Origin: Squalus acanthias
Lineage: Eukaryota
NCBI GenBank assembly: GCA_030390025.1
Contig: CM059431.1
Location: 113,772,001 to 113,836,000 of the forward strand
Length of the DNA stretch: 64,000 bases
Direction: 5' to 3'
Of this stretch, positions 336-59,243 are shown one piece after another. Both the position numbers and the translations under genes were made by a program. A model generated the notes under the pieces. That model had not been told where the DNA came from and searched no databases. It was given only the letters and a program-made list of their open reading frames with translations. Every line of letters starts with the position of its first letter. The stretch's first letter is position 1.

Positions 336-1438
336 TCTCTTGTGAACGCCTCCCCATCGAGGTCCTCATCTGAGTCCTGTGCAGCAGAACTCACACGTGA
401 ACTCACCCTCTGGGGAGCTGGCTCCCGAGTTTCCCTTTCCCCCTGGCCTTGCTGCAGCCCACTCATTCCCGGTGCATCATCCAGTGCAGACCCCTCTACT
501 AAACTTGCCTCTAAAGATCGCGTTGTCCCAGTATCTGAGGTGGTGCCTGCGGGTGAGATATGCAGTGATGCGGTGCTTTCTTCCTCCTCCTCTTCTCCTT
601 CCTCACTCTCAGTGGGGGGTTCAGGGACAAGCTGGTCAGCTGGTTGCTGATTACCTGATAGCATAAAGACAAAAGACTCGTGTTAAAGTGAGAGCAGTGG
701 GGCAGGAAGGGAGCAAGGAATGCAGACAGTATAATGAGCTGGAAAGTGGGAAAGGCTGTGGTGTGAGGGAGAAGTGAGATGAGAGAAGGGGAGGGGATGA
801 ACATACTGTTGTTGCCCCCAAGGGGGTCGACATCACCGATGGCCACGGTGTCCACCACCTGGCGCCCAATGACTCTCGGCACTCGCTCCTCCAGGTCTGT
901 AAGCTGTTGGATGTCTGCTTCACCCCCGCCTGTTCGTTCCTGCTCCCTCCTATTGTGGCCCAGCTTGGCCTGCAAGAGAAAGAAAAGTGTGTGCGTGAGT
1001 GTGCAGCTATGTGTTTGGGAGATGTGGCTGCCATAGTTGAATAACTGTGATTGTAGGCAAGGCGTGAGATGTGGATATGAGTTTTAGTAGGTGGAGAAGC
1101 TTGGTGGGTGAGTGGTAGGGGTGTGGTGGTTTGTACAGTGTGTACAGACTGAGGATCAGCTGGTGGTATGTAGGACTTGTTGAAACATGTACTCACCCTG
1201 ACCACCTGAGTGAGGTCGTTGAATTTTTAAGGCACTGTGTGAGAGTCCTGAGGACCACACTGCTGGCCGAGACGTCCTGAACCACTTCCCTCCACATTGC
1301 CCTGAAGACCTGGTGCAATGGCCTCCTGCCAGTGGCCGGGAACAGCGCTGCCCTCCTTATTTCGACTGCCGCGACCAATGCCTCCAATGCCTGGTCACTG
1401 AAATGGCGAGCTCTCTCCCTGGGACTGGGATCAGCCAT
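336..1438 (-). pseudogene. Harbinger Myb/SANT-like DNA-binding protein; exons 1438-1197, 969-807, 654-336(truncated)
   Basis: RHFSDQALEALV...W.EV...RTLTQCLK-FNDL (1-nt frameshift near 1225); exon 2 HNRREQERTGGG; acidic exon 3; GT/AG junctions visible. Confidence 0.8.
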
Positions 1439-1778
1439 AAGGATAAGAGGTGTAGCTGTTGAGTTGCTTGGAGGTCACCTTCAGAGCCAGCAATGTTGAG
1501 AAAGAGGTTGTGCAGAATGATTGAACCTCCCCTTTAAGAGCTGGAAGGAGCCAATGTGAATGATGAGTCCCGATTGGAGTGCACCTGAAATTGGTTATCG
1601 CCCTGCGGGTAGTGCCCCGCTCTCTATGTGTAGCGCCCTAAGTTAGGTGATTAGCGCTTGATTTAGCGCTACAGTTCTTACAATTTAGCGGGAGGTCAGA
1701 AGGATTAGCTCCTGGCGCTAATTCTCCAACATTTTAAAATTTAGCGCCCCAACTGGGGTGATACCGAAGTTTTAGCCC
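336..1778 (-). mobile_element. Harbinger transposon remnant (Myb-gene end), cut by the CR1 insertion
   Basis: Terminus 'ataccgaagttttagccc' at 1778, repeated TAGCGC subterminal motifs, spliced Myb/SANT-like gene inside. Confidence 0.85.
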
Positions 1779-2571
1779 ATTGAAACTGTTTTTTCGAAAA
1801 GCTATTCATCACAGAGTGATGGATTACCTTCAGGAAATCAGCCTACATTAAACTGCCAGGGGGAAAAATTCGGTTGCTTTGCGCCTCCCGTTAGCGAGGG
1901 CGCTAATGGGGCGCAAAGCAACTTGCGCCCGGGCGCGGCAATCTTTGCGGCACTCACGAAATTGACCAGACATTTTGCGGTGGCGCTAAACACTACCACC
2001 ACGATCTCCTGCGCCCGCAGATTGTGACGTCAGTCGAGCATGCAATGCCCCTGTAGCGCCCTAGACCAGATATTGAGTGGCGCCCCCTGCCTTACCGCCT
2101 GCCGCTAGCAATGACAGGTTGAGGGGAATGTTTTGCAGTCGGGAAGGGACTGGGGGTGCGCTATTTAAAGGCGGACGCTTCTGACTTTTTTTGTCGGCGA
2201 CATTTTTGCACTATGCATTCTGAGAGAGATAGAGAGAAACTTCTGGAGAGATTTAACGCTGTGTGAAGGAGTTTTGGGTACTGAGCAGCACTTTGCAGGT
2301 TCATTTTGATTTGACCTTCCTTGCATCGATTTAGAAGAGACTTAAGGGGGCTGCACTCTGAGCTCTTTCCCTGGGCCTCTCCATTGTTCTTTCATGCAGA
2401 ATTGATGTGCAGATCTCTGCAGGCTGAGATTCAAGGCTGCAATGAGCAGGGTGTGGATGGAGAGCAAGATCGACCCTCCCCTTTAAGAACTGGCTGGTGC
2501 CTGTGTGTCTGTGTTCCATTGCTGTGAGAAGTCGCACAACACCAGGTTATAGTCCAACAGTTTTATTTGAA

Positions 2572-2610
2572 ATCACAAGCTTTCGGAGCGCTGCTCCTTC
2601 GTCAGGTGAA
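2572..2610 (-). ncRNA. Minimal type I hammerhead ribozyme motif of the Penelope 3' region
   Basis: Minus strand UCAC-CUGACGA-A-GGAGC-agc-GCUCC-GAA-AGCU-U-GUGA: core boxes, 5-bp stem II, 4-bp stem I, palindromic AGCU in place of stem III. Confidence 0.8.
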
Positions 2611-2897
2611 GTGAAGAGATGCATATAGGTACAGCATATATAGTCAGAGAATACTGCCAGATGATTACAGTTAATCTTTCTAACTGCCCTTTATCACACC
2701 TCGGCAGAGAGATAATCATGGCAATCAAAGGTGTGGATGGTGTCCAAACAGGTCAGTCAGGAAAACATTACATCAAAGACAATGAGGTGGGGTCACAAGG
2801 GGTCAAATGTGGCAGATGCTGGGGTCTGTATGGAAAACAAAAAACTTTTTTTGCTGGAAATCACAGCAGGTCCGGCCGCATCTGTGTAGAGAGAACA

Positions 2898-2940
2898 AGC
2901 TAACGATGACTCGAGTCTGGATGACTCTACGTCAGGTGGG
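2898..2940 (-). ncRNA. Second, decayed hammerhead motif just after the Penelope stop codon
   Basis: CUGACGU-A-GAGUC-aucca-GACUC-GA(gtcatc): stem II intact, GAAA box disrupted. Confidence 0.55.
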
Positions 2941-2941
2941 G

Positions 2942-4920
2942 TTACATGTAGCGTGACATGAACCCGAGATCCCGGTTGAGGCCGTCCTCATGGGTGTGGA
3001 ACTTGGCTATCAGTTTCTGCTCGACAATTTTGCGTTGTCGTGTGTCTCGAAGGCCGCCTTGGAGAACGCTTACCCGAAGATCGGAGGCTGAATGTCCTTG
3101 ACTGCTGAAGTGTTCCCCAACTGGGAGGGAACACTCCTGCCTGGTGATTGTTGCACGGTGTCCGTTCATACATTGTCGCAGTGTCTGCATGGTCTCGCCG
3201 ATGTACCATACTCCGGGGCATCCTTTCCTGCAACGTATGAGATAGACAACGTTGGCCGAGTCACATGAGTATGTACCATGTACCTGGTGGGTGGTGTCCT
3301 CACGTGTGATGATGGTATCTGTGTTGATGATCTGTCATGTCTTGCAGAGGTTGCCGTGGCAGGGTTGTGTGGTGTCGTGGTCGCTGTTCTCCTGAAAGCT
3401 GGGTAATTTGCTACGAACGATGGTCTGTTTGAGGTTAGGCGGCTGTTTGAAGGTGAGTAGTGGAGGCATGGGGATGGCCTTAGCGAGGTGTTCGTCGTCA
3501 TCGATGACATGTTGAAGGCTGTGAAGAACATGGCGTAGTTTCTCCGCTCCGGGGATGTACTGGACGACGTAGGGTACTCTGTTGGTTATGTCTCGTGTTT
3601 GTCTTCTGAGGAGGTCTATGCGATTTTTCGCTGTGGCCCGTCGGAACTGTCGATCGACGAGTCGAGCGTCATATCCTGTTCTTACGAGGGCATCTTTCAG
3701 CGTCTGTAGGTGTCCATCGCGTTCCTCCTCGTCTAAGCAGATCTTGTGTATTCGCAGGGTTTGTCCATAGGGGATGGCTTCTTTAACGTGGTTAGGGTGG
3801 AAGCTGGAGAAGTGGAGCATCATGAGGTTGTCCGTGGGCTTGCGGTAGAGTGAAGTGCTGAGGTGTCCGTCTTTGATGGAGATTCGTGTGTCCAAGAATG
3901 AAACCGATTCTGAGGAGTAATCCATGGTGAGTTTGATGGTGGGATGGAACTTGTTGATGTTATCGTGTAGTCTTTTCAGTGATTCTTCGCCGTGGGTCCA
4001 TAGGAAGAAAATGTCGTCGATGTATCTGGTGTATAGCGTTGGTTGGAGGTCCTGTGCAGCAAAGAAGTTTTGCTCGAACTTGTGCATGAAGATGTTGGCG
4101 TATTGGGGTGCGAATTTGGTCCCCATGGCTGTTCCGTGTGTTTGGGTAAAAAACTGGTTGTCGAAGGTGAAGACATTGTGGTCAAGGATGAAGCGGATGA
4201 GTTGTAGGATGGCGTCTGGAGATTGGCTGTTGTTGGTATTGAGTACTGAGGCTGTCGCAGCGATGCCGTCATCGTGGGGGATACTGGTGTAGAGTGCCAA
4301 GACATCCATCGTGGCGAGGAGTGTTCCTGGTTCAACTGGTCCGTGGGTGCTGAGTTTCTGTAAGAAGTCTGTAGTGTCGCGACAGAAGCTGGGGGTTCCC
4401 TGTACGATGGGTTTCAGGATGCCCTTGACGCATCCAGAGAGGTTCTCACACAGGGTTCCATTGCCTGATACAATAGGACGTCCGGGTGTGTTGGCTTTGT
4501 GTATCTTTGGGAGGCAGTAGAAGTCTCCCACGCGGGGAGTACGTGGGATGAGAGCGCGTAGGATGCTTTGAAGGTCTGGATCGAAGGTCTTGATCAGTCT
4601 ATTGAGTTGGCGGGTGTTTTCTTTGGTCAGATCTGCGGGTAACTGTCTGTAGTGTTCCTGGTTGTCCAGTTGTCGGTATGCTTCTTTGCAATAGTCCATT
4701 CTGTTCTGTATGACGATGGCTCCTCCTTTGTCCGCTGGTTTGATGACGATGTTGCGGTTGGTCTTGAGAGCGTGGATGGCGTTGCGTTGTGCTCGGGTGA
4801 CATTCTGGACTGTCTTGTGAGTGCGGCTGATGAATCTGGTGTTGATGCATCTCCTGACAGCTTAAGCATACATGTCAAGCTTAGGGCAGCGACCCTCCGA
4901 AGGGGTCCAATTTGACTCCA
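2942..4920 (-). pseudogene. Penelope RT + GIY-YIG endonuclease, single frame with two premature stops (4864-4862, 3337-3335)
   Basis: KPADKGG, LPKIHK, GRPIVS, DVLALYTSI, GTAMG, RYIDD, YRKPT; then CKT*Q, VVY...YIGET, R.CMNGH, EQKLI, GLN; the ORF segments share one frame. Confidence 0.95.
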
Positions 4921-10535: not shown

Positions 10536-12253
10536 GGGTCCGCGATTTCCCCTATCTCGGTGGGTCCAGTGCAGCCGGAGTCGATGGCAGGTCACGAACT
10601 TGCTGCTGGCTCCAGCCCGCTGTCCAAAGTGATTTTACATTGATTGGGCTTGTTAAGCCCGCCCAGCGCGTTTGCCGGCCAATTGAAGGAAGCGGCTCTG
10701 ATGATGTCAATTGATGACACGTCATCAGCCGGTTTCCTTAAAGGGATCATGCGCAAATTGATTTTGACATTTGTGCTGTCAGTGTTCTACAGCACTGAAG
10801 TGCTGCTAACACTGAGGAGCACTGCACAGAGGTGCACGGCTGCACCCAGGCTCTCACATGACTCCCTCTATATGCTTATGGAGGGAGTCACAGCATGTAG
10901 GGAGGTTCTCATTCCTTCCAATGGGTGGAAGAGACCTCCCCAGGACACCAACGCAGTCTGGTTGCACATTGCACAGGAGGACACAAGCAGGGATGTCGTC
11001 AGGAGGACAAAATGCAATGGTGCAAACCTTCCAATAATCTCAGTAGATCACAAAATGTTACTGCAAAGCCACACTCAACCTTACCCTGCTGTGCCACTCA
11101 TCACATCCCCAACACTCTGCCTTCCCTACCCTATTCCTGCACATCCTTACTCACACCAACTTACCTTGTACCTCCACCCAGCCCTTTCTATCTGCATTAT
11201 CACTTCCCTATCTCAATAGCCAACTCTCACACTCACCCTCATCCTAGTCTAATCATACCTACTAACAACACACAAGGGTAGGCACTTGGGTGTTTTAGCC
11301 AATGTTCATGTGAAGTTTCTGTTAATGTGCTGTCAAACATTGAAATCTTTATTTTCAACACTTTGTATTCTTAGACAGATATGTGTGCCCCTTTGGAAGT
11401 GGCTTAGTGAGTTGCAGTGACTGGTGAGACATAACGGTATCCCCTGCAATGGTCATGAGTGTAAAAGAAATGGCTTGGGCATTGTAAGGATTCTTTATGG
11501 TGTTGGTGTGAGGTGGTGCCAATCTGGCACATCATGTGACAGCCAGGGTGTACAGTATCAAGTGAAGTAAATCTGGCTAGGGTGAGGCCATCCCTGGTCT
11601 CCCGGGCAGCAATGTGCTCAGGTGCTGATGCCGTGTCCTGTGCATCATCAGTTGATTGCGGAGAAGGTTGGTGTTGTTGGTGCTGCTGATGTGCCTGGTG
11701 CTGCTGGTGTTGGGGCTGATTGTGGTGGGATTCTGATGGAATAGATGGCAGATGAACTTGAGATGACAGAAGTGGTCTGTCAATGGTGAGAGAGGTTGTT
11801 CCAATAAGGTGACACTGGATAGAGAGTTTACTCCAAACACTTGCAACCTGCATAAAGCTCAATCTGTCTTCCAAATGCAATAAGCAATAGCTTCTGAGTG
11901 TGGAAAGTGAACAGCTATGAGATGGGAGCTTTTTAGCACATTTACAGCTATCAAGTAAAGAGATGATTTCATGGTAACACAACTCCTGACCTCCTTACCT
12001 GACATGATCCCCGAGCAGCGTGGACTCCGTGGGCGACCTCATAAAATTTAAAGGCGAGCTCAAAATACTTTTTAAGTGGCTCTTAACAAGGTCATAATGA
12101 CCTAAATTGCCTCCCCTGTTGCTGCGTGTCGGGTCTGTTCAGCATTGACAGACCCAACATCTGGGAAAGTCGCGTGGCAGCGGGTCAACAAAAAAAAATT
12201 CCCAACCGACCCGCCACCAAACGCGCTCGCCGACTCCCCGAAAAATTCCCCCC
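10536..12253 (+). mobile_element. 1.7-kb Harbinger internal-deletion derivative, copy A
   Basis: Myb exon-1 remnant on + (APRLSHDSL..LMEGV...W..IAQE), fused transposase N/C termini on -; colinear with 50501-52271. Confidence 0.85.
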
Positions 12254-15083: not shown

Positions 15084-15550
15084 TGTCAGCTATTGCTCAG
15101 TGGGTAGCACACTCACCTCTGAGTCAGAAGGTTGTGGGTTCAAGTCCCCCTCCAGAGACTTGAGCACATAAATCTAGGCTGACACTCCAGTGCAGTGCTG
15201 AGGGAGTGCTGCACTGCCGGAAGGTGCCGTCTTTCGGATGAAATATTAAACCGAAGCCCCGTCTGCTCTCTCAGGTGGACATAAAAGATCCCATGGCACT
15301 ATTTCGAAGAAGAGCAGGGGAGTTATCCTCGGTGTCCTGGCCAATATTTATCCCTCAATCAACATAACAAAAACAGATTAACTGGTCATTATCACATTGC
15401 TGTTTGTGGAAGCTTGCTGTCTGCAAATTGGCTGCCGCATTTCCCACATTAGAACAGTGACTACACTCCAAAAGTACTTCATTGGCTGTAAAGTGCTTTG
15501 AGACGTCCTGTGGTTGTGAAAGGTGCTATATAAATGCAAGTCTTTCTTTT
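15084..15550 (+). mobile_element. tRNA-headed DeuSINE-type SINE (SacSINE1-like), full length
   Basis: A box gctcagtgg, B box ggttcaagtcc, central 'aaaagatcccatggcactatt...gaagagcagggg', L2-like tail gctatataaatgcaag. Confidence 0.85.
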
Positions 15551-32442: not shown

Positions 32443-33681
32443 ATGGGAATCATTTATTTCCTTTCCTCCTGGACATCAGATTCGGACGAAGACCAGCCAT
32501 GGCAGCAGCAGAACCCTGAACAACAGCAGCACCAACTGCAGGAGCAACAGCAGGAGCGCCAAGCTGCTGCTCACCCACCTGAAGCTGCACAGGCCAGAAG
32601 GCGCCAACGCATGGAAGCACATCGGCGCAGGAGATACCCCTAAAACAGGGTCTACAGACAGAGGATAAGCTACCTCAACATGACTGAGCAGCAGTGCCAA
32701 AGGAGGCTCAGACTTTCGCGAGAGGTAGTGGGTGACATCTGCGCAATGCTGCAGCAGGAGCTGGAGCCCAGAGGAGTGGGTGGGCACCCCTTACCAGTGG
32801 CCGTCAAAGTCACCACCGCACTCAACTTTTTTGCTTCAGGCTCATTCCAGGGATCAGCAGCAGACATCAGCGGCATCTCCCAGGCGGCCGCACACACTTG
32901 CATCACGCAGGTAACTGATGCCCTCTTTGCCATCGCTCATAATTACATCAATTTCTCCAAGGATCAAGCAAGTGGAACTGCGCGTGCGGTTGCGTTTGAC
33001 AATCTGGCAGGCTTTCCGAGGGTGCAGGGCGTTGTTGACTGCACACATGTGGCCCTTAAGGCACCCCAGCACAATCAAGGTATTTTTGTCAACTGCAAGG
33101 GCTTCCACTCCCTCAACGTACAGCTGGTGTGTGACCACAAGAAGGAAATTTTGCATGTTTGCACCAAGTACCCTGGCAGTTGCCATGACTCCTTCATCCT
33201 GTGGCAGTCTAGTGTGCCTCCGCTCTTCAGTCCGCCAGACCAACTTTTCGGATCGCTACTTGGAGACAAGGGCTATCCCCTGAAGACGTGGCTAATGACG
33301 CCGTTGAGGAGCCCATCCAATGAAGCTGAGGAGCGCTACAACTCCAGCCACATTTCCACCAGATCCATAATCGAACAAACCATCGGCTTGCTGAAGATGC
33401 GCTTTAGATGCCTGGATAGATCAGGTGGAGCCCTGCAGTACTCAGCAGCCAGGGTCTCCAGAATCGTCGTGGTCTGCTGTGCACTTCACAACATGGCACA
33501 GCATCGTGGCTTGCAGATGCCTGAGGAACAAGTGGCTCATCACATAGCCTCCTCAGATGATGAGGAGGAGGAGAGCGACAACAAACAGCTTGCGGAGGCG
33601 CATCAACCAGCGGCAGCAGCATGCAAGCACATTGCTGCCCGGAATGCAAGGCACGCACTCATCTTGGCTAGATTTGCTTAG
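32443..33681 (+). pseudogene. Harbinger (HARBI1-like) DDE transposase with one in-frame stop at 32641-32643; 333-aa downstream ORF 32680-33681 is open
   Basis: [69 protein letters not shown]-rich N-terminus in the same frame. Confidence 0.93.
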
Positions 33682-37399: not shown

Positions 37400-37645
37400 A
37401 AAGAGTCTGACTTGAAAAGCCCCACTTCAGAGACTTGAACACAAAAATCTGGGCTGACACCCCAGTGCAGTACTGAGGGAGTGCTGCACTGTAGGAGGTG
37501 CCGTTTTTCAGATGAGACGTTAAACCGAGGCCCCATCTGCTCTCTCAGGTGGATGTAAAAGATCCCATGGCACTATTTTGAAGAAGAGCAGGGGAGTTAT
37601 CCCCAGTGTCCTGGCCAATATTTATCCCTCAATCAACAGCACTAA
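37400..37645 (+). mobile_element. DeuSINE-type SINE, partial
   Basis: Central domain nearly identical to the 15084 and 41529 copies. Confidence 0.85.
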
Positions 37646-37751
37646 AAAAAAAGGATTATTTTTTATTCGTTCCTGGGATGTGGGCGTCGCTGAATCTCAG
37701 TCCTGTATTACTCCAACATTGTGTTTTCGACACTACCTTACTTGACACATT

Positions 37752-40306: not shown

Positions 40307-40685
40307 TTTTTTTTTATTTGTTCACGGGATGTGGGTGTCGCTGGAAAGGCCAGCATTTATTGCCCATCCCTAATTGCCCTTGAGAAAGTGGTGAGCTGCC
40401 TTCTTGAACCGCAGAGGGCAGTTAAGAGTCAATCACATTGCTGTGGGTCTGGAGTCACATATAGGCCAGACCAGGTAAGGATGGCAGATTTCCTTCCTTA
40501 AAGGACCAGATGGGTTTTTATTACAATCTGGTAGTTTCATGGTCACCATTACTAGATTTTTATTCCAGATTTATTTAACTAACTGTATTTAAATTCCCCA
40601 ACTGCCATGGTGTGATTTGGACTCTTGGCTCGTTAGTCTGGGTCTCTGGATTACTAGTCCAGTAACATAACCACTATGCTACTGT
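40307..40685 (-). mobile_element. tRNA-headed SINE sharing head and tail with 56649-57814
   Basis: Head gtagcatagtggttatg, central ggaaggaaatctgccatccttacctggtctggcct, tail caagggcaattagggatgggcaataaatgctggcc plus poly(A). Confidence 0.85.
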
Positions 40686-41124
40686 TATCCCCTTAACTCC
40701 TGATCTCTCTGAAACTGGTAGCTAAATAACATGCTGATAGATCATATGGTTCAGGCTCAAACTAATTATTGTTTATTAAGCAATCAAATAACACAGGAGC
40801 AAACTGGATCAATCAGCAGAATGAATACAGTCTCAGAATATTTTATTTCACGCAAGTACTTTAAGACAAGTTCAAACCAGTAAAAGTCCCAAAAGTCACA
40901 GTACTCTTCAGTAACTTTTGTAACCTGGACCACATGTCCTTGACGATCTTTACGAGAAAGATCTTTACCTCGACGAGAAAGAAAATTCATGGAGTTCCTT
41001 TAGCCTATGGATCATGTGGCAATGTGATGTGAAGGGGACTGCCAGCCTGATCATGTGACTCTCTTTCCTTTGAAAATAAACTGGGAGAAAAGAAGATGAA
41101 CAAATATCATCTTTTGTTTCTTAA

Positions 41125-41528: not shown

Positions 41529-41969
41529 TGTCAGCTGTGGCTCAGTGGGTAGCACCCTTGCCTCTGAGTCAGTATAAGTCGTGAGTTCAAGCCCCACTTC
41601 CAGAGACTAGGCTGACACTTCAGTGCAGTACTGAGGGAGTGGTACACTGTTGGAGGTGCTGCCTTTTGGATGAGACGTTAAACCGAGGCCCCGTCTGCTC
41701 TCTCAGGTGGATGTAAAAGATCCCATGGCACTATTTCAAAGAAGAGCAGGGGAATTATCCCCGGTGTCCAGGCCAATATTTATCCCTCAATCAACATCAC
41801 TAAAACAGATTATCTGGTCAGTATCACATTGCTGTTTGTGGGAGCTGTCTGTGCATTTCCTACATTAAAGCAGTGACTATACTTCAAAAAGTACTTAATT
41901 AGCTGTAAAGCGCTTTGGGACATCCGGTGGTCATGAAAGGTGCCATATAAATGCAAGTCTTTCTTTCTT
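41529..41969 (+). mobile_element. DeuSINE-type SINE, near full length
   Basis: A/B boxes, central domain, L2-like tail. Confidence 0.88.
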
Positions 41970-50500: not shown

Positions 50501-52271
50501 GGGCTGGATTTTACCAACCTCGGCGGGTTCGTGGCGGGTGACGTCGGTGGCAGGTCCCGCCCTCGCTGCTGGCTCCAGCCCGCTGTCCAAAATGATTGTC
50601 TGATGATTGGGCTTGTTAAGCCCCGCCCAGCGCGTTTCCCGGTCAATTGAAGGAAGTGGGTCTGATGACGTCAATTGATGACGTGTCATCAGCCAGTTTC
50701 CTTAAAGGGACCATGCGCAAATTGATTTTGACATTTGTGCTGTCAGTGTTCTACAGCATTGAGGTGCTGCAAATACTGACAAGCACTGCACAGATGTGCA
50801 CGGCTGCACCCAGGCTCTCCCATGATTCCCTCCATATGTTTATGGAGGGAGTCGCAGCACGCAGGGAGGTCCTCTTCCTTTCCAATGGGCGGAAGAGAAC
50901 CTCCCCAGGAGATCAAAGCAGCCTGGTTGCACATTGCACAGGAGGGCACAAGCAGGGATGTCATCAGGAGGACCAGGCTGCAGTGGTGTAAACCTTTCAA
51001 TGATCTCAGTAGATCGCGAAATGTTAGTACAAAGCCACACTCACCTTCACCCTGCTGTGCCTCTCATCACATCCCTATCACTCTGCCTTCCCTACCCTAC
51101 TCCTGCACATCCTTACTCACACCAACTTACCTTGTACCTCCACCCATCCCTCTCTATCTACATTATCACTTCCCCCTCTCACTAGCCACCCCTCACACTC
51201 ACCCTCATCCTTGTCCAACCATTCAAACTAACAACACACAAGGTTAGGCAATATTCATGTAAAGGTTCTGTTCATGTGGTGTCAAACATTGAAATCTTTA
51301 TTTTGAACACTTTGCGTTCTTGGACAGATTTGTGTGCACCTTTGGAAGTGGCTTAGTGAGTTGCACTGAATGGTGAGACATAACGGTACACCCCGCAACG
51401 GTGATGAGTGTGAAAGGAATGGCTTGGGCATTGTAGCGATGCTTTATGGTGTTGGTGTGGGGTGGTGCCAACTTGGGACATTATGTGGCAGCCAGGGTGT
51501 ACAGCATCAAGTGAATTAAATCTGGCCATGGTGAGGCCATCCCTGGTCTCCCGGGCAGCAATGTGGTTGGGTACTGATGTCCTGTGTCCTGTGCAGATTC
51601 AGTTGATTGCGGAGAAGGTTGGTGTTGTTGTTGGTGCTGCTGGTGTGCCTGGTGCTGCTGGTGTTGGGGCTGATCGTGGTGGGATTCTGAGGACCAAGTT
51701 GAGATAGTTTCAAGGGCACCGATGCTGATGGAATAGATGGCAGGTGAGGTTGAGATGACAGAAGCAATCTGTCAATGGTGAGAGAGGTTGTTTCAATGAG
51801 GTGACACTGGATAGAGAGTTTGCTCCAAACACTTGCAACCTGCATAAAGCTCAATCTGTCTTCCAAATACAGTAAGCAACAGCTTCTGAGCTTGGAAAGT
51901 GAACAGCTCTGAGATGGGAGCTTTTATAGCACATTTGCAGCTGTCAAGTAATGAGATGATTTCATGGTCATACAACTCCCGCCCTGCTTACCTTATGTGA
52001 TCCCCGAGCAGCGTGGACCCTGTGGGCGACCTGGTAAACACTGAAGGTGAGCTGAAAATAGTTCTTAATGCTCTGCTAACAAGGTCATAATGACCTTAAT
52101 TGCTGCCCTCGCCGCTGCATGTCGGGTCTGCTTAACGCTGACCGGTCCGACATTTGGGAAGGTGCGTGGTGGCGGGTTGACAGTGGGGTTCTGCCCCAGT
52201 GTCAAAAAAATGCACTTTGCCACCCGACCCACCACTGATCGTGCCTGCTGACCCCCCGGAAAATTCCCCCC
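50501..52271 (+). mobile_element. 1.7-kb Harbinger internal-deletion derivative, copy B, inserted in a Penelope-type terminal repeat
   Basis: Colinear with 10536-12253; flanks 50468-50500 and 52272-52343 rejoin as ...gacctgaaac[a/g]ttaactctgtttctc; TSD att/gtt. Confidence 0.88.
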
Positions 52272-52838: not shown

Positions 52839-53788
52839 GGCCTAGAAATTGGTTCACAGCGGCCTTCTGGCGCAAACTGGGCCCTTGGGACGATCCTTGC
52901 TCAGGAACAGGTAGGCCCCAGGCTCATCCAATATTGGGCCTTCGACCTCATTTACAGAAGACTGGCGAGCTGTAGACACCTGCTGGGCATCCCCAGGCAG
53001 CTCAGCAGCAAGGCGGTTTCAATATTGCAGCGGCCCTCAGGTAGGTGCTTGGAAGCGAGAGGAATCAGTAGAGAGAGGGACAATCAGGAGAGGGTGGGGG
53101 GGGGGTGATCCACAGTGAGGGATGCAATCGGGAAAGGGAGGGTGGGGTGGCGATCTGGAGAGAGAGGGGCTGGTTGGGAGAGAAAGGGGCGATTGGAAGA
53201 GAGGAGAATGATTGGGAGTGTGAAGGGGGTGTTTGGGAGAGGACGGGGTAGCGATCGGAAGAGGAAGGGAGCAATTCGGAGAGAGGGGGGCGATCGGAAG
53301 AGAAGGGGGCGATTGGAAGAGAGGAGAACGATTGGGAGAGAAGGGGTAATTAGGAGGGAGAGGTAACGATCAGGAGAGAGGGGGACGATCAGGAGAGGGC
53401 CGAGTAAGGGGTCGGCAATGGTCTTCAGCACTGCGGTGGAGCTGGGTGGAGCACGCCTGCTCCTCCCAGCTCCACACTCAGCTAAGTATTTTTTGTATTG
53501 GCGGCCTCCAGCGGTTCCATTAAGGACGGACGCTGGTTAGGTCGCATGTTTACCACGTTTTTCAGGGCAGCCCAATTTTGCAAAGGAGCCTCAAACAAGC
53601 ATTAGGCAAAGGGCCTAACGTCTGTTTCAAGCACGAGCCATTGACGTCTCTTTTCCTGCCTTTACCAATATGGCCGGCAGAGCACTTCCAGGCTGTAATG
53701 GGCACGCATTCTTCCCGCCATATGGGATGCTTAGGCAGCCGATTTTGCGCCTGAAAAAAGGGTGCAATGCCATCGAATGTCTAGGGCA
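52839..53788. mobile_element. Harbinger-type MITE with an internal purine-rich tandem repeat (53065-53400)
   Basis: Ends ggcctagaaatt / aatgtctagggc; gcgatcggaagagaagggg-like units. Confidence 0.6.
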
Positions 53789-54845: not shown

Positions 54846-54894
54846 TTTAATTTCTTTTCATTTGTTCTCGGGCTGTAGTTCTTCTGTTGATGGT

Positions 54895-56185
54895 CCTTCA
54901 ATGATGATGTTACATAAGGCATTCCAAGATATTGACCCAGTAACGATAAAGGAAAGGTAATATATATGTCTAATTCAGGATGGTGTGTAACTTGGAGGGG
55001 AACTTGGAGGTGGTGGTGTTCCCACAACATTGCTTCTCTTATCCTTCTTGATGGTAGAGGTCACAGAGGAGGGAGGTGCTGTCAAAGTAATCTTGATGAG
55101 TTAATGCAGTACATCTTATAGCTAATACATATTGCAGCCACAGAGTTCCATTGATGCAGGAGGTGGATAATTCCAATTGCACAGGTATCAATCAAACAAA
55201 CAGGCCTATCCTGGATGGTGTTGTGCTTCTCCAGTGTTGTAATTGCACCCATCCAGGAAAGTAGTGGGTATTTCACTATACTCCTTATTTGAACTTTATA
55301 GATGGTGGAGATGCTTGAGGGGTCAGGAGGTGGGCCACTCATTCGAGTACCCAGCCTCCACTCTGCTCTTGTAGCCACAGTGCTGATACGCAAGGATTAG
55401 CATCCCCAAGGAAGTCCTGCAGCAATATACTGGGACTGTGATGATTGGCCTCCAACAACCATGACCATCTTTTTGGGGAAAGGCGGGGGAATGGGACTAC
55501 CTGGATTGCTCTACGAAAGAGCCAGTGCAGACTCAATGGGCTGAATGGCCTCCTTCTGTGCTGTATTATTCTATGATTCTAGTTACGTTTCTAGTCAATT
55601 GTGATTTCCTAAGAGGTTGATGATGGAAGATACAGTGATGGTGGTGCTATTCAGTTTCAGGGGGTAATGGCCATGCTTTCTGCTGTTCAAAATGGTAATT
55701 ATCTGGCACTTAAATGGCATAAATGTTACCTACCACTTCTCAGCCCAAGCCTAGATGTTGTCCAAGTCCTGCTTTGTTTTCCGAGTAGTTGTCAATGGAG
55801 CTGAACACTGGAATCATCAGCGAACACCCCCACACTTGACCTTGTGATAGAGGTAAGGTCATTGATGGGCCGAGGAGGCATCCCCAAGGAACTCCTACAG
55901 CAATATACTGGGGCTGTGATGATTGGCCTCCAACAACCATGACCATCTTCCAGTATGTCAGGTTTAACTCAAGCCACTGGAGTAGGTGTCACTTGATAGC
56001 TCTATTAATGACTCCATCCATCACTTTACACACGATGGGGAGGATGCTGATAGGGCAGTAATTGGTCGGATTAGATTTATTCTGTTTTTTTGTGGATAAG
56101 ACATATGTGCACACATTATTGGGTAGATGCCAGCATCATAGCTGTACTGGAACAGCTTGGCTAGTGGAGCAGTGAGCACTGGTGA
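54895..56185 (-). mobile_element. Decayed LINE RT/3' fragments of the family at 56649-57814
   Basis: PLAKLFQYSY..GIYP, VVVGGQSSQ....GVP.G.LLGP; 54950-55020 is the reverse complement of 57575-57645. Confidence 0.75.
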
Positions 56186-56428
56186 AAGGGAGCAGCACTT
56201 TATTGTGGCAGGGAACATTTTTGCAGCACCTACAGCAGCAAGGAGATCAAACATTAGAAGCCTTTAAGCTTCAAAACACATAAACGACTGCAGTAAAAAT
56301 TATTTGTCAAACCTGCTTTCAGCTTTCAAACAAAAGCAAAATACTGTGGTAGCTTGAAATCTGAACTAAAAAAGAGAATGCTGGAAATGTTCAGCTGATC
56401 AGGCAGCATCTGTGGAAAGAGAAACAGA

Positions 56429-58300
56429 GGCCCCAATATTTACGGGGAGGCGGAGAGGGTGCAAGAGAGCGCTGGGAAAACCCAGCAAGGCAGGGGACAT
56501 GGAGGTCCTGCTGAATTTAACGGCAGGACCTCATTATAAGTTTTTGTTTCCATTTCCTGCCCGGCAGCCGGCCAAATTGACAGGCTGGCTGGCTGCCGGG
56601 CAGGGAAACCAATGGCAGGAGGCAATCTGAAAGAAGGGAGGGAGGGGTACGGTAGCATAGTGGTTATGTCACTGGACTAGGAATCCAGCGGCCTGGTACT
56701 AATGATCTAGAGATGTGAGTTCAAATCCCACCCCAACAGCTGGGGAATTTAAATTGAGTTAATTAAATAAATCTGGAATAAAAAGCTAGTAACAGTGACC
56801 ATGAAACTACCGGATTGTCGTAAAAACCCATCTGGTTCACTAATGTGCTTTAGGGAAGGAAATCTACTATCCTCACCTGGTCTAGCCTATTTGTGACTCC
56901 AGACATACAGCAATGTGGCTGACTCTTAACTGCCCTCTGAAATGACCTAGCAAGTCACTCCTTTGTATCGAACTGCTACGAAAAACAATAATAAGAATAA
57001 AACCAGACGGACCACCCGGCATCGACCTCGGCACCAGATTCAGACACGACAAAGGCCCAGTCGGCCCTGCAAAGTCCTCCTCATTTAAAATCTTGTGCCA
57101 AAATTGGGAGAGCTGTCCCACAGACTAGTCGAGCAACAGCCTGACATAAGTCAGACTCGCAGAATCATACCTTTCAGCCAAAGTCCTAGACTACTCCATC
57201 ACTATCCCACTGGCAGGACAGACCCACCAGAGATGGCAGCACAGTGGTATACAGTCAGGAGGGAGTGGCCCTGGGAATCCTCAACATTGGTTCTGGTCAA
57301 ACATGGTCAAGGAAACCTACTGCTGATTACCACTTACCGCCCTCCCTCAGCTGATGAACCAGTACTCCTCCATGATTAACACCACTTGGAAGAAGCACTG
57401 AGGGTAGCAAGGACAGAGAATGTACTCTGGGTGGGGGACTTCAATCACCATCACCGAGTGGCTCGGTGGCACCAATGCTGGCCGAGTCCTGAAGGACATG
57501 CTGCCTGAACTGGGCCTGCAGCAGGTGGTGAGAGAACCAACATGAGGGGAAAAACCTATTTGACCTCATTCTCACCACCACCACCTCTAAGTTCGCCTGC
57601 AAGTTACACACCATCCTGACTTGGAAATATATCACCGTTCCTTCATTGTCGCTGTGTCAAAATCCTGGAACTCCCCCCCTAACAGCACTGTGGGAGTACC
57701 TTCACTGCACGGACTGCAGCGGTTCAAGAAGGTGTCTCAAGGGCAATTAGGGATGGGCAATAAATGCTGGCCTTGCCAGCGATGCCCACATCTTGTGAAT
57801 GAATAAAAAAAAAACAGGGCTTTCTAGTGGGTGGGGAGAATAGAATGGCAATCGGAAGGAAGGGAGCGAGAGATTGGGGCATGGTCGGAGGGAGGTTGGC
57901 GATTGCGGTCAGGGGGAGAAAGTGCCATGATCAGGAGAGGGGAGGCCAAAGACTTCTTTAAGGGGCTGGGGGGGGAGCAGTCCTGCTCGTCCTGGCCTAC
58001 AGGGAGTGCTGCAAAAGGCACTTACCTTGTGGAGTCGGCTGCTCCTGCCTCCCCTTCACTGCTGGGTTTCTCAACCCTGGGAAACCCGGCCGACAACTGC
58101 TAAATTTAAATCAGTCTCCCAATTGCACTTTGGGAGCCTGATTTAAATATGTTAATGAAGTGTCCCGCCTCACTCGCACGCTGTAAAAATGGCGACAGGC
58201 GTGCACGTGTTGGGGACGTAATCCCTGTTTTAACATTTTTAACCCACCCACAACCCTCTCCTGCCATTCTTGGGGGTGGGGCAGGTTTAATATCGAGGCC
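56429..58300. mobile_element. Harbinger-type MITE hosting the tRNA-headed retroelement, itself inserted in a Penelope-type repeat
   Basis: TIRs ggccccaatattta / ttaatatcgaggcc. Confidence 0.7.
56649..57814 (+). mobile_element. tRNA/SINE-headed, internally deleted LINE with AP-endonuclease remnant
   Basis: A box tagcatagtgg, B box gagttcaaatcc; LVPKLGELSHRL..QQPDI, YRPPS, WVGDFN, V.EPT.G.N..DLILT; LINE C-terminus (WNS.P), 3'UTR, poly(A). Confidence 0.8.
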
Positions 58301-58425
58301 AGCGTTAACTTTCCAGGTTAATGAGGGTTCTAATGAAAAGTCATCAACCTGATAGGTTAACTCTGTTTCTCTCTCACAGATGCTGCCTGACCTGTTGAGT
58401 GTTCCCAGCATTTTCTGTTTTGATT
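58301..58425 (+). mobile_element. Penelope-type terminal repeat with decayed hammerhead; inverted partner at 56335-56428
   Basis: ctaatgaaaagtcatcaacctgata-ggttaactctgtttctctctcacagatgctgcc. Confidence 0.7.
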
Positions 58426-59243
58426 GCTACTTTCAGCATTCCGTGACTGCTGCTAAGGACGTCTTCAAAGTATGCTCAAAATGGCAGCCACCCGACTTCT
58501 CCTGGCCATGGTTGGTAGGAGCAGGAACTAGCGATAGTAATGTTCCTCCTTCTTTCCGGTGGGACCTCTGGCTGCCAGGAGGTCCACCCAAAAAAACAGA
58601 AAAGGCGGCGGTTCAGTTTCTCACATGACTTTGGTTCCCTACTGCCCCGTTTCTAGGTACCAATGGGGCAGTAAGGAAGTGAAAAAGTGAAAATCACCCC
58701 TTTTGTCTTCACAAGGACTGTGCTGTGGTCACTTCTACTGCTACTATCATGGATAGACATGTCTGTGACAGGTAAAGAAAGAACTTGCATTTATATAGAG
58801 CTTTTCACGACCTCAGGACATCCCAAAGTGCTATACAGCCAATGAAGTAATTTGGAGGTGTAGTCATTGTTGTAATGTAGGTAGATTACTTCCTCATGTT
58901 CTCTCATCACCTGATCCAGATGCCATTCTGGCAGTTATGACCTTCTGGGAAATAGCTCAGTCAGTGGAGGCACTACCAAGCCACTCTTGGTACTAGCCCA
59001 TAAATTACCAAATTTATTAAACCCACTTTCACAAATTGAGGGATTTGAAACCATGACCTCTGGTTTGCCAATACCATGACCACTAGGTTACCGCACTCTA
59101 TCCATGCTATAGTACTACTACAGCACTGGTCCTGTACCCTTTACCGGAGGCTTGTACCATAGGGTGGTTGTAAAAGAATTCTCATATGAAGGCTTGACAT
59201 TTCTCTTTTTTGATGGAAACAGGAGCTAACTTTGCTTTCCTCC

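Follow-up and report, generated by a model that had tools for sequence, protein, structure and literature searches.

Does a coding LINE of the spiny dogfish carry a tRNA-derived promoter of its own and, if so, was that promoter captured from a SINE? The question is raised by an element at positions 56645–57814 of the window (the whole stretch of 64 000 nucleotides analysed here), which an initial annotation described as a LINE headed by a tRNA/SINE module. The proposed layout is borne out: along the forward strand, a tRNA-like head with A and B boxes is followed by a body, a spacer, a broken endonuclease, a deletion jump, the end of the ORF, a 3'UTR and ten adenines (A10). The alignments described below identify the locus as a dead copy, lacking its central part, of the elasmobranch Zenon LINE, which is common in sharks and rays. 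Our overall reading, to which we assign a probability of about 0.5, is that this dead copy lacks about 2.1 kb of a single endonuclease (EN)–reverse transcriptase (RT) frame, and that the full-length family opens with the tRNA-derived head, probably serving as an internal RNA polymerase III (Pol III) promoter. The features concerned are the following.

56645–56739, forward strand: tRNA-derived head with a long variable region (Rfam; box scan; same start in seven published Zenon consensuses, first 400 bases)
56740–56960, forward strand: body of the 5' region, matching the SINE at 40412–40685 at 81%, without the Deu, UCON3 and Meta motifs tested
56942–57088, forward strand: mini-frame ATG-ACC-TAG and, behind it, a basic leader without AUG that stays open in the endonuclease frame (translation; contigs of three organisms; the first 400 bases of the consensuses)
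57089–57576, forward strand: degraded AP-endonuclease code interrupted by stops, frameshifts and small deletions (intact single-ORF relatives as tblastn queries)
57134–57148, forward strand: motif QQPDI (translation)
57335–57346, forward strand: motif YRPP (translation)
57434–57445, forward strand: motif GDFN (translation)
57562–57576, forward strand: motif DLILT (translation)
57573–57585, forward strand: out-of-frame deletion junction in a CAC run, with residues ~190 to 885 of the relative P0017 absent (frames differ; alignment)
57576–57750, forward strand: C-terminal ORF code with a small deletion near 57735 (64% identity to protein P0002; loose contig ends at 57735)
57751–57814, forward strand: 3'UTR, for which a stem-loop is predicted, and the A10 tail (fold; contig ends)
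40307–40686, reverse strand: SINE consisting of the first 295 bases of the LINE joined directly to its last 95 (alignment)
54890–56236, reverse strand: distinct copy of this LINE type, truncated at its 5' end, with RT and thumb code and no 3'UTR (alignment; protein match)

The 5' end of the element lies at about 56645, four bases ahead of the 56649 first given, as judged by eye against the published consensuses in their first 400 bases. Both strands of the window were scanned with what we take to be the A- and B-box consensus patterns. The A box was found at 56653–56663 and the B box at 56719–56727, and this pair is one of only two in the 64 kb that are spaced by 30–100 bp. Rfam matches a tRNA at 56646–56739 (E 0.0054; 26.8 bits, below the gathering score of 29 bits). 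ARAGORN calls no tRNA gene there, and the 5' region folds no better than shuffled sequences (z −0.8). The body is 220 bases long and the spacer, LINE-specific from about 56960, 130 bases.

Ahead of the leader of the endonuclease domain, the sole in-frame AUG meets a stop two codons on (56942–56950). Past this stop the frame stays open for 45 codons, and in translations of this element no frame opened by an AUG extends to the beginning of the endonuclease. The distance from mini-frame to endonuclease, measured by eye in the consensus rows available, is equal in CarCar, ScyCan and HypSab (two sharks and one ray); RhiTyp and the three SquAca rows have other distances. The AUG-less leader points to a non-AUG start or to read-through of the stop. 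A 3-base deletion at 56987, which keeps the frame of the leader, is common among the contigs.

The endonuclease code begins about 445 bases from the 5' end, likewise in the HypSab and SquAca-3 consensuses, which reach the endonuclease start within the compared bases. All four endonuclease motifs previously reported are present. Pfam recognizes the scraps weakly (Exo_endo_phos_2, E 0.061, one of nine peptides); the EN piece, the tail code and the RT fragment all match intact single-ORF EN–RT proteins (EN piece, E 3.6e-13 with P0031). As a ruler we used P0017, the single 939-aa EN–RT frame of an intact LINE at 446–3720 of a metagenome contig (L001), in which Pfam identifies both EN and RT. The EN piece corresponds to its residues 104–182, the tail to 898–935 and the RT fragment (56236–54890, reverse strand) to 446–934; the same three-part map was obtained with other intact proteins (the best 14 of 112). 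All pieces fit one 939-aa frame, as in Zenon, whose single ORF codes for AP endonuclease and RT without an ORF1. The element also has the poly(A) tail of Zenon, seen as A10 at 57805–57814 and as A-rich loose contig ends; in the published account, this tail is unique to Zenon among CR1-group elements (PMC13343379).

At the junction the linker, RT and thumb are gone, about 700 codons (2.1 kb). The jump previously placed at about 57575 is real, since 57576–57670 aligns with the end of the RT fragment at 82%, but the five bases of 'cacca' microhomology assigned to it are not assured. The junction lies inside a (CAC)4 run. The right-hand donor contains just 10 bases of this kind, and the window does not include the left-hand continuation, so the microhomology amounts to 2–5 bases. 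None of the 32 contigs listed, out of more than 318 000 aligned pieces, bridges 57575, and the deletion probably stems from a single template jump or repair event. Behind it come the last 60 codons of the ORF, the 3'UTR and the poly(A), in agreement with the initial annotation. The stem-loop predicted in the 3'UTR is modest (fold z −2.1; 6 of 200 shuffles equally good). Hundreds of contigs pass into unrelated DNA behind 57812–57814. One contig of organism D crosses the border between poly(A) and flank (window 57783–57950) with three differences in 168 bases, so the insertion is likely shared with organism D. No target-site duplication was found around 56645–57814; a 24-bp flank repeat (56621–56644 and 57847–57870) was rejected as such because it does not adjoin the tail, and looks like a host tandem repeat.

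The Zenon family is already published (Stuart et al. 2026, PMC13343379), with elasmobranch consensuses of 2.9–3.3 kb and no ORF1; their tRNA head is deposited yet undescribed in the searched text, and the searched main text has no mention of tRNA, Pol III or polymerase III. From the supplement of that paper, the first 400 bases of seven elasmobranch, two hagfish and one coelacanth Zenon consensuses were compared by eye. The seven elasmobranch rows (CarCar, HypSab, RhiTyp and ScyCan Zenon-1; SquAca Zenon-1, -2 and -3) represent five species, sharks and a ray. All seven open with the tRNA head, body and spacer, start 7–12 bases ahead of the A box and retain the two boxes, with a deletion in the stretch between them in SquAca-2. 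Over the same bases the head occurs in none of the three hagfish and coelacanth consensuses, and among the table text listed the body motif is confined to the seven elasmobranch rows. The window copy resembles these consensuses in its first 400 bases, its lack of ORF1, its poly(A) and its EN plus RT code, and differs in being internally deleted and dead; in those bases, a count by eye gives about 40 differences from SquAca_Zenon-1 plus a single 6-base gap (about 90% alike).

With contigs from four runs, no bin of the element is left uncovered. Among the 32 matches listed, three (from organisms A, C and D) bridge the body–spacer border at 56960, one bridges the endonuclease start at 57089 and none spans the whole element. 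The bridging contigs, with 20–37 differences each, therefore represent copies other than this locus. The join of head and endonuclease is thus consistent, within the compared bases, across the consensuses (7/7) and the contigs of three organisms, and is not peculiar to this locus; as judged from these comparisons, a family-wide head–endonuclease architecture is solid.

The tRNA head is likely to be a Pol III promoter. This reading draws on the retention of both boxes, with 5' ends just ahead of the A box, in the sharks and ray compared, on the scarcity of runs of four T (T4) and on the want of an AUG-started frame into the endonuclease. The search of the sense strand for TTTT gave a divided result. 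There is one T4 run in 2396 sense-strand bases; base shuffles predict 6.5 (P 0.006), but a dinucleotide model predicts 3.4 (P 0.16), and neither L001 (7 in 2820; P 0.057) nor the other retro-ORFs of the window (10 in 5064; P 0.09) differs significantly. Tests for each piece were not significant; the element itself has no T4 run in 1160 bases, and visual inspection of the starts (400 bases) of the seven elasmobranch consensuses revealed none. The depletion of T-runs is therefore only suggestive (P 0.006 to 0.16).

Under the Pol III reading, a template switch during reverse transcription would have placed a tRNA sequence in front of a Zenon at an early stage of elasmobranch evolution. TFIIIC and Pol III would initiate at the first base of the element, so that every full-length copy would carry its promoter. 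The coding strand would have been purged of T-run terminators, and translation of the RNA, which would lack a cap, would not begin at a normal AUG. Whenever a deletion spared the two ends, a Pol III SINE would result immediately, recognized by the LINE protein through the 3' stem-loop. In the usual view, LINEs are Pol II transcripts and SINEs arise from a small RNA fused to a LINE tail. A coding LINE with its own tRNA promoter would, if confirmed, blur the divide between LINEs and SINEs, provide a one-step route from one to the other and offer a natural test of translation from a 3.3-kb Pol III RNA; the locus itself adds just one further dead copy.

The head might instead be a fixed passenger: Pol II would make the LINE RNA, with either the body or host sequences acting as promoter, and only in the SINE derivatives would the boxes matter. 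LINEs are as a rule transcribed by Pol II (PMC5786205), crocodilian Tx1-Mar LINEs carry U1/U2 heads without an internal promoter (PMC4494074), and the T-run test is not decisive against three of its four controls. We nevertheless regard a passenger head as rather unlikely, given the conservation of boxes and start in the compared consensuses of sharks and ray, the lack of the in-frame AUG expected of a capped mRNA, and the element's freedom from T4 runs.

LINEs headed by small RNAs have precedents, namely Tx1-Mar and RTE-1_DAn. The Tx1-Mar LINEs and their SINEU (Kojima 2015, PMC4494074) are likewise coding families sharing a small-RNA head with SINEs, but belong to a clade other than Zenon, their U1/U2 heads lack internal promoters and those SINEs contain oligo-T. 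RTE-1_DAn (Kojima 2018, PMC5786205) is mentioned in one sentence as a LINE with tRNA-like sequence. In the same paper LINEs count as Pol II transcripts, and bipartite SINEs such as Bov-tA and SINE2-1_ACar likewise combine a tRNA with the 5' and 3' parts of a LINE; in those the head was gained after the deletion and the LINE lacks it, whereas the elasmobranch Zenon LINE itself carries the head. The reverse case, SINEs with LINE promoters, is on record (PMC4758252), and Zenon tails are used by bivalve SINEs (PMC11481361). Searches of the literature turned up neither a tRNA-headed shark LINE nor a LINE transcribed by Pol III; a full-text search with four window motifs yielded no matching paper.

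The SINE at 40307–40686 on the reverse strand bears on how head and LINE came together. Previously described as a head plus a tail (40307–40685), it does consist of the 5' and 3' ends of the LINE: its head matches at 81% over 291 bp and its tail at 82–91%, with zero foreign bases in between. The tail reads RFKKAAHHFLKGN*, and its start still codes for the C-terminus of the ORF. At 380 bases it is short and non-coding, with a tRNA head and a LINE-derived tail, as in the SINEBase definition; the A box is intact and the B box damaged, and no target-site duplication was found around it. Many different head-to-tail joints occur in the contigs (15 of 1920 listed), some retaining spacer-like letters and a longer tail. 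This variety fits repeated internal deletion, as reported for lepidopteran Zenon and its Persaeus derivatives (PMC6740152), and the proposal that SINEs are built from the two LINE ends is supported. The matching SINEs of the genome are likely Zenon LINEs minus the coding middle. In the lepidopteran SIDEs, too, a 5' and a 3' part are combined repeatedly by deletion at short direct repeats; Persaeus and the 5' piece of lepidopteran Zenon have no tRNA homology and Persaeus no Pol III promoter, whereas the shark derivative is a tRNA-headed SINE.

The initial annotation held the 5'UTR to be a captured SINE. A tRNA head does stand at the 5' end of a full-length, single-ORF LINE family that gives rise to SINEs from its two ends, but descent from an older SINE is unsupported. 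A template switch could have transferred the head and body of an older partner SINE to Zenon, which would use the Pol III promoter so gained, both ends now being common to LINE and SINE. A LINE protein binds the RNA of its partner SINE, which makes such switches plausible, and exchange of modules among SINEs is documented (PMC5499810). The body is also unlike the 5' region of L001 and so either came from elsewhere or diverged. Against capture, the body gave no match to the UCON3 and Meta core motifs with up to three mismatches (a single motif for each domain). The two Deu motifs (PMC7245038, figure S4) are absent from it as well, matching instead at 15284, 37558 and 41716, and at 15225 and 37499. 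No known older SINE is thus identified as donor by the motifs tested, and the window's SINE holds nothing beyond the LINE ends. Zenon-masked DNA amounts to 28–290 Mb, or 0.7–6.8%, in four elasmobranch genomes (162 Mb in spiny dogfish, 290 Mb in white shark) and to 179 kb, or 0.018%, in a chimaera, so that no abundant older SINE with this head is visible there, provided that the masking used one pooled repeat library, as we infer. Capture from a SINE is accordingly a doubtful, distinctly unlikely origin; a tRNA joined to a LINE, with SINEs derived from that LINE, appears the simpler reading. Very improbable is a chance adjacency or one-off SINE–LINE chimera at this locus, with which the lack of a spanning contig among the matches listed and of a target-site duplication would agree, since the same head–spacer–endonuclease order in the compared part of seven consensuses and in contigs of three organisms already refutes it, unless all seven are assembly chimeras.

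A second type of tRNA SINE, about 440–470 bases long and with Deu motifs, lies at 15084–15549, 37417–37658, 41529–41966 and 58774–58881. It is likely SacSINE1-like, and a repeat separate from the head-plus-tail SINE. A reading of the element's head as SacSINE1/Deu was rejected because the Deu domain matches this other repeat and not the body. Aligned to it, the body scores as shuffles do (P 0.37), and the tails are likewise unrelated (P 0.32); the sharing of a tail between SacSINE1 and an L2 partner was not found here. The SacSINE1/Deu-SINEs of cartilaginous fishes (PMC5499810) also have a tRNA head with A and B boxes and a shark host, but differ in body and tail.

In the 5' region of L001 there is no Rfam match, no tRNA and no A/B pair, and no similarity of body, spacer or tail to its ends exceeds that of shuffles. 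L001 has many metagenome relatives at 54–86% identity and represents a headless outgroup for elasmobranch Zenon; a short out-of-frame AUG frame lies just ahead of its start. Pattern scans of viral and metagenome contigs gave no matches; profile scans gave none in viral or prokaryote contigs and nine distant metagenome loci, none similar to the window in DNA. No intact shark protein of the Zenon family was found, the shark matches being short or repeat pieces inside predicted genes. The horn shark gene models P0011–P0013 (jmjC8, prostacyclin receptor and cationic amino acid transporter 4 isoforms) contain LINE C-terminal code, likely as exonized repeats or annotation artefacts. Intact frames are rare in elasmobranch Zenon (0/2313, 1/1419 and 3/612 among the entries of Table S3 of PMC13343379). 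The corresponding cell for SquAca_Zenon-1 there holds the value 675852; as a spreadsheet date this number is June 3750, so that 6/3750 was likely meant.

The RT fragments previously noted at 54895–56185 were confirmed, with a slightly wider span (54890–56236, reverse strand). About 60 codons are missing, 72 bp are duplicated (55400–55471 and 55878–55949, 96%) and, adjoining the duplication, a CR1-like 3' end is inserted on the opposite strand at about 55484–55582. The fragment was rejected as a 5' inversion of the same insertion, since other repeats intervene and the head of the element is intact. The element is nested in repeats (56333–56644 and 57815–58439) that look like a MITE-type host, with 47-bp inverted arms at 56368–56414 and 58375–58421; hairpins at 56553–56607 and 58104–58148 flank it, and a 19-bp tandem unit resembles 53149–53397. 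The CR1 and L2 labels on neighbouring repeats are our assumption. Further off, a 508-aa RT frame followed by a GIY-YIG-like frame (2942–4861, reverse strand) is presumably Penelope-like, and a 345-aa transposase frame (32644–33681, reverse strand), which we take to be Harbinger-like, has two related 1.7-kb copies (84%) at 10544–12185 and 50507–52177.
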